In this document: positions 31,219 to 35,670 of the stretch, piece by piece
How the letters are laid out: each line of letters opens with the position of its first letter
Numbering within the stretch: position 1 is the first letter of the stretch
Assembly (NCBI GenBank): GCA_026129095.1
Contig: JAHCIT010000009.1
Coordinates: forward strand, 124,001-160,914
Origin: Deltaproteobacteria bacterium
Lineage (GTDB): Bacteria; JAGRBM01; JAHCIT01
DNA: 36,914 nt
Direction: 5' to 3'
Made by a program: the position numbers and the translations under genes
Notes under the pieces: model-generated
Seen by the model: the letters and a program-made list of their open reading frames with translations, nothing else
Told to the model about the DNA's origin: nothing
The model's database searches: none

Positions 31219-31265
31219 GGGTTATTCACCTTTACTTATTAATGCGGGTTGGGGATCTGGAAATC

Positions 31266-31341
31266 TGGAGCGGGCTACGGGGCTCGAACCCGTGACCTCG
31301 ACCTTGGCAAGGTCGCGCTCTACCAACTGAGCTAAGCCCGC
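31266..31341 (-). tRNA. tRNA-Gly(GCC)
   Basis: GCGGGCTTAGCTCAGTTGGTAGAGCGCGACCTTGCCAAGGTCGAGGTCACGGGTTCGAGCCCCGTAGCCCGCTCCA; full cloverleaf with encoded CCA. Confidence 0.98.
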
Positions 31342-31362
31342 CTATATGGAGGCGCGGCGCAA

Positions 31363-31391
31363 TTTCTACTCACGGACCGGGATGTTGTCAA
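31363..31391 (-). promoter_or_regulatory. Sigma70-type promoter of tRNA-Gly
   Basis: TTGACA-17 bp-TAGAAA followed by a GC-rich discriminator (GCGCCGCGCC). Confidence 0.7.
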
Positions 31392-31442
31392 CATCTTCGC
31401 CGGAAACCCGCACCACCGCACCGGGGCCCGGAAAACCGGCAC

Positions 31443-31488
31443 AAAAAGCGGCCTCCGCGCCCGGACTCAACCCGGTAACGCGGAGGCC
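31443..31488 (-). terminator. Intrinsic terminator of the intergenic small transcript
   Basis: 10-bp stem GGCCTCCGCG/CGCGGAGGCC with an inner CCGG pair, followed by GCTTTTT. Confidence 0.8.
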
Positions 31489-31653
31489 ATGAAAACGGTA
31501 AGCTGTGAAGATTGGCCAAGGGCTGGTGTCGCCCCTGCGATGGCCGGCTTTCAGGCCGGCCCGGTCGAGTCCAGAGGGAGCAGCCTCTAGGCCTCAGCCA
31601 CCTCACTGTTCAAATGATGTTTAGCCAAGTCGGACCACCTCCTTTCTCAGTGT
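31443..31653 (-). ncRNA. Candidate ~210-nt structured sRNA / sORF mRNA (MAKHHLNSEVAEA, 31628-31587)
   Basis: Extended -10 TGtTATGCT (31668-31660), AGAAAGGAGGTGGTCC at the 5' end, a 13-codon ORF, three internal hairpins and its own terminator. Confidence 0.6.
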
Positions 31654-31705
31654 GCGGGAAGCATAACACACGGGAACGGGGGCCGCCGTTATTTTTCGTT
31701 AAGTC

Positions 31706-32419
31706 TCAGAACCGCTGGACGCGGGTGCCCTCGGCCGGAACGACCGTGAAGATAGCGTCGGGAATGTCGGCATTTTCCCGGATGTCGCTGAACCTGATCG
31801 TCGTGCGCGATCCCTGGGCGTCCGACTGGTACAACCCCCGGAGCTTGTACGTCACCGGATCGATGATGAGCGTCAGCGAGAAGTTCTCAAGCTTCGGGTC
31901 TTTCGACTCCAGAAGCAGGCGGTAGTTCCCCTCGCCGTCCACGAGCCCCAGGTCCGGCTCGCGCACGTTGAACGCTTCTTTCAGCTCGCCGAGCCCCTTG
32001 AGGAAGTTGGACGGCGTGGGGGAATCGAACGCCTCCTCCAGCTTCTTCACCGCGAGGTATTTCTCCTCCTCGTTGTAGTAGAAGAACACCTGCCCGTTGC
32101 TCACGTACTGCATCGCGCTTGGGCGCTGGTAGTCCCAGTTCATCTTCCCCGGAAGCTTGAACGACACCATTCCCTCGGCCGTGCGCGGGCGGCGCGCACC
32201 GGGGAGCCGTGTCTCCTGGACGAACTTCGCCTGGATGGTTTTTGTCTGGCGATAGTTAGCCTGCACCTTCGCGGCGATCTCGTCCACCGACGGACGTGCG
32301 GGAGAGGCCGTTGCTGCCGCAGGCGGCTGCGCCGGAGCCGACTGGCCAAACACCGGGACGGCAGAAACAGCGATCAGGAAAGACATAATGCTTTTGAACT
32401 GCATGGAACGGGAGATCAT
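31706..32419 (-). CDS. lolA: Outer-membrane lipoprotein carrier protein LolA
   Basis: Signal peptide; AKFVQ, G.V.FKLPGKMNWDY..P, VSNG...Y, TP..FL.G, T.IRFS, F..P.G. Confidence 0.88.
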   Translation of the reverse strand: MISRSMQFKSIMSFLIAVSAVPVFGQSAPAQPPAAATASPARPSVDEIAAKVQANYRQTKTIQAKFVQETRLPGARRPRTAEGMVSFKLPGKMNWDYQRPSAMQYVSNGQVFFYYNEEEKYLAVKKLEEAFDSPTPSNFLKGLGELKEAFNVREPDLGLVDGEGNYRLLLESKDPKLENFSLTLIIDPVTYKLRGLYQSDAQGSRTTIRFSDIRENADIPDAIFTVVPAEGTRVQRF

Positions 32420-34105: not shown

Positions 34106-34182
34106 GGGCGCGTAGCTCAGATGGATAGAGTGACGGTCTCCGAAGCCGTAGGTCGTGGGTTCGAATCCCGCCGCGCCCGCCA
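34106..34182 (+). tRNA. tRNA-Arg(CCG); probable integration site
   Basis: GGGCGCGTAGCTCAGATGGATAGAGTGACGGTCTCCGAAGCCGTAGGTCGTGGGTTCGAATCCCGCCGCGCCCGCCA; anticodon loop CT-CCG-AA, encoded CCA. Confidence 0.97.
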
Positions 34183-35670
34183 AATGAGACGACTGCCGTT
34201 TTCAACCCACATCGAGAACGGTTTTCTATAATCCCCACGCAGAGTTATGCCGTCGAGCATCGGGTTCGATAAGACGATGCGGGCAAGTTTTGCCCGCCGC
34301 CGTGGTTCCGCCGTTTCATAGAGTGATTTCGCACGCTTGGAGAGTTCTAACGCGGTCCCAAAGGCCTTATAGCCGCTTGCGACCGATGCAGACCCGTGCG
34401 CGGCAGCCTGTTCGGCCCCCGTGAGTTCCGCCCGCCAGGCACTCCATTTCTTCTGGAAGAATTCGTCGTCGATCCGGCCTTCGACGTGATCGGTATAAAG
34501 CCGGTCCAGTTTCACTTTAAGGTCCGATACACGCTTCCTGGCGTCGTTCTGACGCTGACGGACCACCACTGTCTCCGAACTCGCCAGATGGTCCGCAGTC
34601 GCTTTTAGCCACTGGGCAAACTCTTCCCCGATCTCGACCGCCCCGATCTTCTCGAAGAGCTGCCGGGAAAGTTCCTCTTCGCGGACATATTCTAAGCGGC
34701 ACTTTTGCTGGTTGGCGCACCGGTAGTAGACGTACCGGCCCTTCTTGATCTCGCCCGTGATCGTCGCCCCGCACCGGGCGCAGGTGAGGAGCCCGGAGAA
34801 GGCAAAGGAGTGCTTGCGGTGTTGCTCAGGGTGATTCTTCCTGCGGAGCTGCCTGTTCGCCCGGTCCCAGAGTTCCTTGGTGACGATGGGCTCGAATCTC
34901 CCCTTATACAGGCGGCCCTTCCATGCGAAATCGCCGTAGTAGATCGGGTTCTTGAGGGCCACTTCCACGCACCTGCGGGAGGCTACTTTCCCTTCCCGGC
35001 TCGTGAGTCCCTCCCTTGTCATCAGTTCCGAGAGCGTCGTGATGGAATAAAGGCCGGTCGCGTACCGCTCGAACATCACCCTCACGAGCGGCGCTTTCGC
35101 CGGGTCGTGGACGATCGAGCGTTTTTCCCGGTTCCAGAGGTAGCCCACCGGCGGACTGGACGGGTACTGGCCGATTTCGAGTTTCTGGTTGATGCCCTTG
35201 CGGACTTCCTCGGAGAGATTATCGACGTAGTTCTTGGCCATCAGCACCTTGATGCCGTGAATGAATTTCGTGTGGCTCGTCGCGTTGCGGCCGATGATCT
35301 CGTTTTCCTTGACGAGGTGGATCCGGGCGTCCTTCTCACGGATAAGGTCGTCGAGCGTCGTGTAGTCCTTGAGATTACGATAGGCCCGGTCGGTCTTCTC
35401 GACGAGGATAATTACTGGGTGCTTCGCTGACCGGATGAACCCGAGCATTTGGCCGAAATTCGTTCGGCCGGCATTACCGGCCGACTCGACGTCGATGAAT
35501 TCCGACAGCACTTTCAGGCCGCTACGCTGGGCGTAACCACGAAGCAGCCCAAGCTGCGAATCAATCGAGAATCCCTCCTCCTGATCCTTGGAAGAGACTC
35601 GGGCGTAAATCACGGCATAAGGGGTTTCGGGCGACGGCTCGTTCGCCGAGCGGCTTAAAGGGATTCGCAT
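34117..35670 (-). CDS. Large serine recombinase (integrase)
   Basis: Catalytic YARVSS..Q...SI..Q, EKTDRAYRN, recombinase domain (PVGY, NPIYYG), Zn ribbon CARCG...YYRC....C and a coiled coil. Confidence 0.95.
   Translation of the reverse strand: MRIPLSRSANEPSPETPYAVIYARVSSKDQEEGFSIDSQLGLLRGYAQRSGLKVLSEFIDVESAGNAGRTNFGQMLGFIRSAKHPVIILVEKTDRAYRNLKDYTTLDDLIREKDARIHLVKENEIIGRNATSHTKFIHGIKVLMAKNYVDNLSEEVRKGINQKLEIGQYPSSPPVGYLWNREKRSIVHDPAKAPLVRVMFERYATGLYSITTLSELMTREGLTSREGKVASRRCVEVALKNPIYYGDFAWKGRLYKGRFEPIVTKELWDRANRQLRRKNHPEQHRKHSFAFSGLLTCARCGATITGEIKKGRYVYYRCANQQKCRLEYVREEELSRQLFEKIGAVEIGEEFAQWLKATADHLASSETVVVRQRQNDARKRVSDLKVKLDRLYTDHVEGRIDDEFFQKKWSAWRAELTGAEQAAAHGSASVASGYKAFGTALELSKRAKSLYETAEPRRRAKLARIVLSNPMLDGITLRGDYRKPFSMWVENGSRLIWRARRDSNPRPTASETVTLSI

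Follow-up and report, generated by a model that had tools for sequence, protein, structure and literature searches.

The closest described relatives of the element reported here are the small RNAs (sRNAs) of Rfam family RF02471 (Ms_IGR-5, "Actinobacteria sRNA"). According to excerpts of the pertinent reports, Streptomyces members of this family are discrete sRNA units validated by RNA-seq, with both ends mapped in Streptomyces avermitilis (PMC8079986; PMC8780764), MS_IGR-5 carries ribosome footprints in Mycobacterium abscessus and M. smegmatis (PMC4974804), and M. smegmatis IGR-5 is identical with ncMSMEG15794c (PMC10454040). Neither in the excerpts of these four reports nor in the other literature searched by name or identifier, the original description excepted, was a function found for Ms_IGR-5; searches under ncRv-style names gave no match, and those on Shine-Dalgarno (SD) sponges and conserved small open reading frames (ORFs) returned nothing relevant. 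Our element resides on the minus strand of a 36,914-nucleotide (nt) stretch of contig JAHCIT010000009.1 (positions 124,001 to 160,914) from the Deltaproteobacteria bacterium assembly GCA_026129095.1, hereafter the window. By homology it is assigned to Ms_IGR-5 as a divergent, sub-threshold member, and its sequence features in combination suggest that the RNA has to be translated in order to act.

Assignment to the Ms_IGR-5 family

At curated gathering thresholds, Rfam reported only two transfer RNAs (tRNAs). With relaxed thresholds, RF02471 matched positions 31443-31653 (minus strand) over its full length (model 1-184 of 184) with a score of 31 bits, which does not reach the gathering cut-off of 45 bits (E = 2.5e-5 for the 551 nt searched). 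When the entire genome was searched with the same model, the element was the top match (E = 4e-5), while the runner-up was a 50-nt fragment with 19.9 bits and E = 0.03. The cut-off was passed by 5 of 18 homologous loci tested, i.e., by the actinobacterial L063 (175.8 bits), L016, L015 and L024 and by the Blastocatellia locus L082, and the window aligns with these above-cut-off members in all conserved blocks; the helices P1, H1 and P2, treated below, covary across the joint set. A covariance model of our own, R1, gives the window 68.8 bits, a score obtained with the window included in the training alignment. Because bridging homologues pass the cut-off, we regard the window element as a remote RF02471 member, and the original prediction that it could not be assigned to any described family was superseded. 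The Ms_IGR-5 family is not confined to Actinobacteria, since the Blastocatellia locus passes the cut-off at 52.3 bits.

Window element and Ms_IGR-5 RNAs are collinear over their full length and have in common the 5' ACAC, the purine-rich AGGAGGUGRUCC, a mini-ORF ending E-V-A-x-x-stop, GUGAGGUGGCUG, the 3' motif AAUCC...CAG..CACC and a terminator. On the other hand, two G-U pairs and a bulge of 1 nt are present in the 3' motif of the window element, which also has a degenerate H1 and a central domain without sequence relationship to the family. The host also differs in not belonging to the Actinobacteria; it stems from a phylum of 6 genomes and from a lineage that is taken to be didermic because a LolA gene adjoins the element.

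On the minus strand the unit reads, in this order, LolA-family stop codon, -10 element, ACAC, first SD sequence (SD1), mini-ORF, hairpins, terminator and tRNA-Gly(GCC), and a single-copy transcript of ~211 nt (31653-31443, minus strand) is predicted. The extended -10 element, the complement to the 16S ribosomal RNA (rRNA), the TTG-started ORF and the terminator were all found at the places where the original prediction had put them. All coordinates are positions in the window.

31668-31660, minus strand: extended -10 element TG-T-TATGCT (TGTTATGCT), from the sequence; the window copy is without a -35 element
31648..31653, minus strand: putative transcript 5' end ACAC (31653-31650) and P1 5' strand CACUG (31652-31648), from the fixed distance to the -10 element and P1 covariation
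31647-31632, minus strand: SD1, AGAAAGGAGGTGGTCC, complementary over 16 nt (one G-U pair) to the 3' end of the host 16S rRNA, from the sequence and comparison with the host 16S rRNA
31608..31634, minus strand: H1 hairpin with arms GUCCGA (31634-31629) and UUGAAC (31613-31608) and one C-A mismatch
31587..31628, minus strand: mini-ORF consisting of TTG (31628-31626), 12 further codons and TAG (31589-31587), peptide MAKHHLNSEVAEA
31608-31604, minus strand: P1 3' strand CAGUG
31603-31598, minus strand: second SD-like core GAGGUG, kept in every homologue read
31602-31595, minus strand: P2 5' strand GGUGGCUG
31581..31593, minus strand: P3 5' strand GGCC-U-AG-A-GGCUG, including the stop codon, from duplex energies
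31514..31525, minus strand: P3 3' strand CAGCC-CU-U-GGCC, from duplex energies and the fold constrained for P1 and P2
31506..31513, minus strand: conserved unpaired loop AAUCUUCA, family consensus AAUCC, from alignment A2
31497..31505, minus strand: P2 3' strand CAGC-U-UACC, anti-SD-like (YACC), pairing with the P2 5' strand, from compensatory changes
31443..31488, minus strand: intrinsic terminator with a G+C-rich stem of 10 bp that encloses an inner hairpin and precedes five T's, from folds
31266..31341, minus strand: tRNA-Gly(GCC), a separate downstream gene, from Rfam and ARAGORN

Complementarity to 16S rRNA and the mini-ORF

The 16S rRNA gene of the host, the only one detected in the genome, ends with GGATCACCTCCTTTCT. 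As the host's own 3' end is thus known, the pairing over 16 nt with one G-U, which had originally been proposed against the usual 16S end, is genuine for this organism. The pattern AAGGAGGTGRTC occurs twice in the 3.67-Mb genome, in the element and in the antisense of the 16S gene itself, and its reversed control pattern gave 8 matches in the same genome; besides the rRNA-gene antisense, the element is the sole 12-nt complement of 16S rRNA that the genome contains. The block is conserved in more than 120 homologues, where the complement is 13-16 nt long, and AGGAGGTGRTC is invariant in alignment A2, although these letters were fixed by the search patterns used. Near-uniqueness in the genome and conservation in more than 120 homologues lift the complement above chance, and the exceptional character attributed to it earlier is in full agreement with these results.

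Most of the homologues stem from a two-motif pattern scan of genome contigs that gave at least 120 loci, and the main locus set underlying our counts was drawn from among the matches listed. In 121 distinct loci we took the first ATG, GTG or TTG located 4-15 nt after GGAGG as the start codon. It is in frame with GAG-GUG in 120 of them, where about a third of the loci would be expected by chance, and the remaining locus is without a start in that range. The stop codon follows 15 nt after GAG, again in 120/121 loci, at ORF lengths of 11-21 codons across homologues. As the reading frame is preserved, ribosomes would appear to translate the RNA and not merely to bind it. Among 123 loci, 101 end the ORF with TAG, 12 with TAA and 10 with TGA; despite this prevalence of TAG, whole clades use TGA or TAA, and stop sensing specific for RF1 was ruled out on these grounds. 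GAGGUG is present in every homologue read, including those found without requiring it, and 5 nt separate its 3' end from the last sense codon.

E-V is the one constant part of the peptide, and all homologues specify it by GAGGUG, without any synonymous change; GCU is retained even in the G+C-rich Actinomycetota. The residue following E-V is A, P, S, V or T, while E is preceded by RTR in most Actinomycetota, by RPG in Terriglobia and by NS or HS in the window and in Pyrinomonadaceae, and these changes coincide with base-pair covariation. Because the residues change radically wherever the helices covary, the peptide is probably unimportant, and the comparison suggests that translation matters whereas its product probably does not. 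The short ORF of the original prediction is therefore real as judged by frame preservation (120/121), but a functional micropeptide, suggested at the same time, is unlikely given that its residues follow the base pairs.

Conserved helices

Helix P1 is formed by the 5' CAC-N and by N'-GUG located just before and reaching into GAGGUG. The N:N' pair is formed in 106 of 121 loci (G-C 52, C-G 24, U-A 21, A-U 9), and the same pair gives GC 46, UA 19, CG 17, AU 3 and other 5 on alignment A3, a model-fitted alignment of 98 sequences. Furthermore, the second family within the phylum of the window has CGC/GCG in place of CAC/GUG, as do three other genomes. In H1 the 3' part of the 16S complement, GGUCC, pairs with GGAC just upstream of the P1 3' strand and encloses the start codon, which in the window (UUG) follows directly on the H1 5' arm. 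For the R of GGUGRUC and its partner we counted G-C in 88, A-U in 11 and G-U in 3 of 121 loci, 19 being unresolved, and an alignment-based tool counted GC 75, AU 7, GU 4 and other 12.

P2 joins GGUGGCUG with the 3' motif CAG(N)YYACC. Its compensatory changes comprise CCUG/CAGG in 7/7 loci (6/6 without L156, which comes from the unpublished genome G190), UCUG/CAGA in 2/2 and GCGG/CCGG and GCGU/ACGC in one locus each. The distal P2 pairs look broken for ~50 actinobacterial rows of A3 in which the 8-nt motif is shifted by one column, an artefact of the alignment, and P2 was recounted with an anchor-based script. P3 is formed between the stretch before the AAUCC loop and the 16 nt that follow P2 and include the stop codon. 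The predicted duplex energy is -19.4 kcal/mol in the window, and over 117 loci the median is -17.0 kcal/mol as compared to -9.6 for shuffled partners; P3 is stronger than the shuffles in 116 of these loci and contains the stop codon in all 117. It also appears unprompted when the window RNA is folded with P1 and P2 constrained. Two A's and a C of the AAUCC loop are at least 90% conserved in A2, and a search for a conserved pairing partner of the loop within the RNA found none.

Over all of A3, 80.2% of the cells are paired, compared to 75.4 +/- 0.4 in shuffles, and the covariation score is 0.143 versus 0.072; 0 of 500 shuffles reached the observed value in either case, and slid controls were 20-59% paired. 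P1, H1 and P2 are supported by these compensatory changes, and P1, P2 and P3 together form a predicted rod that buries the end of the ORF and its stop codon. Not all pairings proposed earlier fit into this architecture. The local hairpins exist where they had been described, but two of them, AGAGG/CCTCT and AGGGGC/GCCCTT, compete with the conserved long-range P3. Pairing of TTGGCCAA over the start codon has to be abandoned as a general feature, as the UUGG/CCAA tetramers were seen by eye only in four members of family f1 and not in genomes G004 or G005.

Transcription and genomic context

All 120 loci with enough upstream sequence have a TANNNT hexamer that terminates 4-9 nt upstream of the A of ACAC, in most cases 6-7 nt, and 97 of these also have a TTGACA-like -35 element, which the window copy does not. 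A rule-based scan for promoters and terminators flagged neither the -10 nor the terminator at the element, because the window is without a -35 element and the loop of the terminator exceeds the length that the rule allows. The terminator, whose stem arms are located at 31488-31479 and 31459-31450 and whose T-run occupies 31447-31443, was read in the window and in ~20 homologues; two folds showing it have z-scores of -3.0 and -3.3. A small hairpin (31675-31690, plus strand; AACGGCGGCCCCCGTT on the minus strand) stands right after the LolA stop codon at the expected place of the -35 element; it may be the LolA terminator and a reason why this copy relies on an extended -10.

The genes flanking the element differ between clades. 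Upstream they encode LolA, MsrA, aminotransferase IV, Fpg, an ABC transporter, cyclophilin and others, downstream, depending on the clade, OPT, L31, MBL, MFS or subtilase proteins, and no neighbour cluster is common to more than 21 of 123 loci. Conserved synteny was ruled out, neighbouring genes being unrelated between clades, and in agreement with the original prediction the element is a stand-alone unit instead of a tRNA leader. In L058 and L082 (Blastocatellia) the gene downstream on the same strand encodes an OPT-family oligopeptide transporter, and in L046 and L061 (Bryobacterales) it is rpmE for ribosomal protein L31, with a Pfam match for L061.

Short contigs located wholly inside the element and with 0-1 differences to it are present in three RNA runs from three studies, strand and ends not being shown: one of 156 nt at 31456-31611, one of 160 nt at 31483-31642 and one of 151 nt at 31503-31639 followed by adapter letters. 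In run X2, separate contigs cover the flanking regions. These contigs are a hint of a discrete transcript, not proof of it. The RNA evidence was taken from runs X1-X4; in the other runs, X5-X23, the shares amounted to 0.09 or less. RNA contigs from runs X1, X3 and X4, belonging to three studies, carry A>G at 31612 (plus strand), which turns codon 6 of the ORF from TTG (Leu) into TCG (Ser) and a G-U pair of H1 into G-C.

Proposed mode of action and alternatives

On the basis of the comparative sequence data we consider it fairly probable that the element is a translation-gated, ribosome-engaging RNA with a dispensable peptide. A 30S subunit would dock on the exposed GGAGG, and extension of the SD/anti-SD duplex into GGUCC would open H1 and free the start codon. 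The translating ribosome would then unzip P1, P2 and P3. Upon its arrival at the stop codon GAGGUG would lie 5 nt upstream of the P-site codon, so that the anti-SD could re-pair in an initiation-like geometry and hold the ribosome; meanwhile the 3' strand with its AAUCC loop and its YACC mimic of the anti-SD would be single-stranded and the open state prolonged, the peptide being a by-product. Membership in the family, the conserved promoter, the frame and stop position of the ORF and the helices P1, H1, P2 and P3 are documented by the data, whereas docking of the ribosome, opening of H1 and the pause at the stop codon are steps that we infer. The output could consist in ribosome holding, in exposure of the 3' strand for pairing, a protein or an RNase, or in control of the stability of the RNA itself.

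A number of observations weigh against this model. In the minimum free energy (MFE) structure of the full 211-nt RNA (-96.2 kcal/mol), the 3' motif and the U-rich linker are the pairing partners of SD1, and the conformer with P1 and P2 (and P3) is, at -94.0, less stable by 2.2 kcal/mol; in the ensemble of the window RNA the pair probability of P1 and P2 is ~0.03. Among 116 homologues folded singly, P1 exceeded 0.5 in 14 and P2 in 58, pairing of SD1 to the 3' tail did so in 16, and RNAalifold on 65 sequences returned only 7 pairs, which comprise a trivial hairpin and, from P2, the proximal four. The H1 of the window, with one C-A mismatch, is weak and was not resolved by the helix finder. Most loci were found with a pattern fixing SD1 and GTGAGGTGGC, which makes the invariance of those letters partly a matter of construction; the set obtained without a fixed second motif (SD1-only pattern and R1 matches) comprises 22 + ~10 mutually related loci, the sequences in the alignments are related to each other, the regular expression locating the 3' motif forced P2 pairs 1-3 and 8, and the training alignment of R1 contained the window. 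As to expression, the RNA contigs show neither strand nor transcript ends, and a 1356-nt contig of run X1 from a related strain (17 differences) spans the whole of 31258-31950, which may reflect DNA or read-through. Single-sequence folding was dropped as arbiter of SD1 exposure, its results being heterogeneous. This leaves two options, an alternation between two conformers or an energy model that cannot decide the matter; covariation favours the state with P1, P2 and P3 as the one conserved.

The same 16S complement, conserved at 13-16 nt and unique in the genome, would also suit an RNA that binds ribosomes without being translated, be it a 30S sponge, a hibernation factor or a factor for 16S 3'-end maturation, which titrates or protects the 16S tail and in which the ORF is incidental. 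The invariance of the second SD-like GAGGUG fits this idea, and the ribosome footprints recorded in an excerpt of PMC4974804 would be expected from bound, non-translating ribosomes as well. Yet a pure sponge needs neither an in-frame start nor a fixed stop, both of which persist in 120/121 loci although the ORF varies between 11 and 21 codons, the conserved fold buries GAGGUG within P1 and P2, and the RNA of a single-copy gene would have to be greatly abundant to titrate ribosomes; we therefore look upon this explanation as rather unlikely. Frame preservation would be satisfied if an 11-21-residue peptide ending x-E-V-A-x-x were the product and the RNA structure only tuned its expression. Conservation of ORF, start, frame and stop, a strong SD implying high expression and the mycobacterial footprints (PMC4974804, in excerpt) are in line with such a micropeptide gene. 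It has little probability in our view, as the only constant residues, E-V, are specified by an invariant GAGGUG without synonymous change, GCU is kept against a G+C-rich background, the residue after E-V tracks the compensatory changes in P2 and those before E, which differ radically, track covariation in H1 and P1, and the N-terminal part varies in both length and sequence.

Two further possibilities were considered. An ordinary trans-acting, base-pairing sRNA, in which ribosome engagement would have no part, could use the 3' strand (AAUCC...CAG..YACC) or the purine-rich 5' part as seed: the AAUCC loop is conserved and lies unpaired without a partner inside the RNA, the anti-SD-like YACC could mask SD regions of mRNAs, and the M. 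smegmatis member reportedly emerged from a screen with heterologous Hfq, as the title of the original paper has it. This leaves the preserved frame unexplained and places the proposed seed in a region that is paired in the conserved fold, and we give it only a slight chance. A cis-acting leader or attenuator of the gene downstream, which in the window is tRNA-Gly, is highly improbable. It is true that the tRNA begins 101 nt downstream on the same strand, an arrangement also seen in two relatives, that a leader ORF followed by a terminator resembles an attenuator and that rpmE is the next gene in Bryobacterales; the neighbours differ between clades, however, no anti-terminator is evident, as the terminator arms and the 3' motif lack complementarity, and excerpts of two reports record members as sRNA units with both ends mapped in S. 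avermitilis (PMC8079986; PMC8780764).

We can only speculate, with considerable doubt, that the family represents a widespread class of "ribosome-parking" RNAs occurring in Actinomycetota, Acidobacteriota, the window's candidate phylum and ~5% of the other families sampled. Such an RNA would capture a ribosome via a 13-16-bp duplex, have it translate a throw-away mini-ORF and re-capture it at the stop codon via the second SD-like site. If this were true, the RNA would measure or modulate the pool of free, initiation-competent ribosomes with the unzipped 3' strand as the signal, and could, e.g., shift the balance between SD-led and leaderless translation or act as a test substrate for newly made 30S subunits.

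Comparison with other known systems

SgrS/SgrT, RNAIII/hld and SR1/SR1P are examples of dual-function sRNAs. Like these and liberated leader RNAs, among which rnTrpL/peTrpL is the comparison case (PMC6614838, in excerpt), the element would be a small stable RNA that unites a translated short ORF with constraints at the RNA level. It departs from both kinds of RNA by a peptide that is not conserved, by the enclosure of its ORF in a covarying rod and by an SD that is complementary to nearly all of the 16S tail, over 13-16 nt. Like transfer-messenger RNA (tmRNA), it is a structured RNA with a short ORF in its interior, and it would likewise be stable and engage ribosomes; in contrast to tmRNA, it is without a tRNA-like domain and has its own SD and start codon, and neither ARAGORN nor Rfam detected a tmRNA at the element.

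The prfB frameshift site features an internal SD-like element next to a stop codon at a spacing of 3 nt. In both cases an SD-like sequence would precede the P-site codon by a few bases while the stop codon occupies the A site, but the spacing is 5 nt in our case and no downstream frame exists for a shift, the +1 frame running through the terminator. For the same reason the 72-amino-acid ORF in this frame (31388..31606) was ruled out as a gene. 6S RNA is likewise a small structured RNA of ~200 nt with a different architecture, and a match to it, which would have spoken against the original prediction, was not obtained with Rfam at the gathering threshold or at E up to 10. A leader-peptide attenuator was rejected, as the downstream gene is not conserved and the 3' motif is not complementary to the terminator arms.

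The features not encountered in the literature searched, outside of which lie the original description and supplementary tables, concern both the anatomy and the range of the family. As regards anatomy, they are the sole long complement to the 16S tail besides the rRNA antisense, the frame-preserved mini-ORF without a conserved peptide, the second invariant SD-like core 5 nt before the last sense codon and the covarying rod burying the ORF end; as regards range, the Ms_IGR-5 family extends to Acidobacteriota, to a candidate phylum of six genomes and to 7/146 other families sampled. Excerpts of published work describe the family gene as expressed in M. smegmatis and Streptomyces, so that the idea of a translation-dependent RNA can be tested there.

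Distribution of homologues

About two thirds of the matches listed belong to Actinomycetota and about one third to Acidobacteriota (Terriglobia, Blastocatellia, Pyrinomonadaceae, Bryobacterales), the remainder being one metagenome-assembled genome (MAG) labelled Heliobacteriaceae and one false positive. The features common to homologues are the -10 element, ACAC, the 16S complement, the framed mini-ORF, GAGGUG, AAUCC...CAG..YACC and the terminator. A blastn comparison of relatives located the element in three other genomes of the same family as the host, and the four copies share the 5' block, the ORF (with indels of 12, 3 and 3 nt) and GUGAGGUGGCUGAGGCCUAG. In the window's phylum according to GTDB, which consists of 6 genomes, a pattern restricted to the 5' block matches 4/6 and R1 finds one copy in each of the six; together with the at least 120 loci listed elsewhere this documents the conservation in relatives by which the original prediction had proposed to be judged.

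The 5'-block-only pattern matched 30 of 301 sampled Acidobacteriota genomes, and reading of 30 of the 32 matching loci identified 22 real elements, 7 other genes and 1 16S gene itself. R1 matched 7/146 genomes of other families (E <= 1e-4; all genomes at least 90% complete). The copies of L046 and L061 (Bryobacterales) are the most divergent ones, with 31-37 bits for R1 and no clear 3' motif. The MAG labelled Heliobacteriaceae (L035 / G045) has a size of 8.4 Mb and a copy that looks like those from Blastocatellia and Pyrinomonadaceae, and it may be mislabelled or misbinned. In the genome of Mycobacterium sp. G042 the 5'-block pattern matches a second time (C5:492563-492583), which could represent a second copy or an ordinary strong SD.

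Neighbouring features in the window

The LolA-family gene adjoining the element upstream is located at 31706..32419. At a greater distance, tRNA-Arg(CCG) (34106-34182, plus strand) overlaps the 3' end of an ORF of 517 amino acids (34117-35670, minus strand), whose N-terminus (..YARVSSKDQ..) we take to be that of a large serine recombinase-like protein; the region may represent an element integrated at the tRNA.

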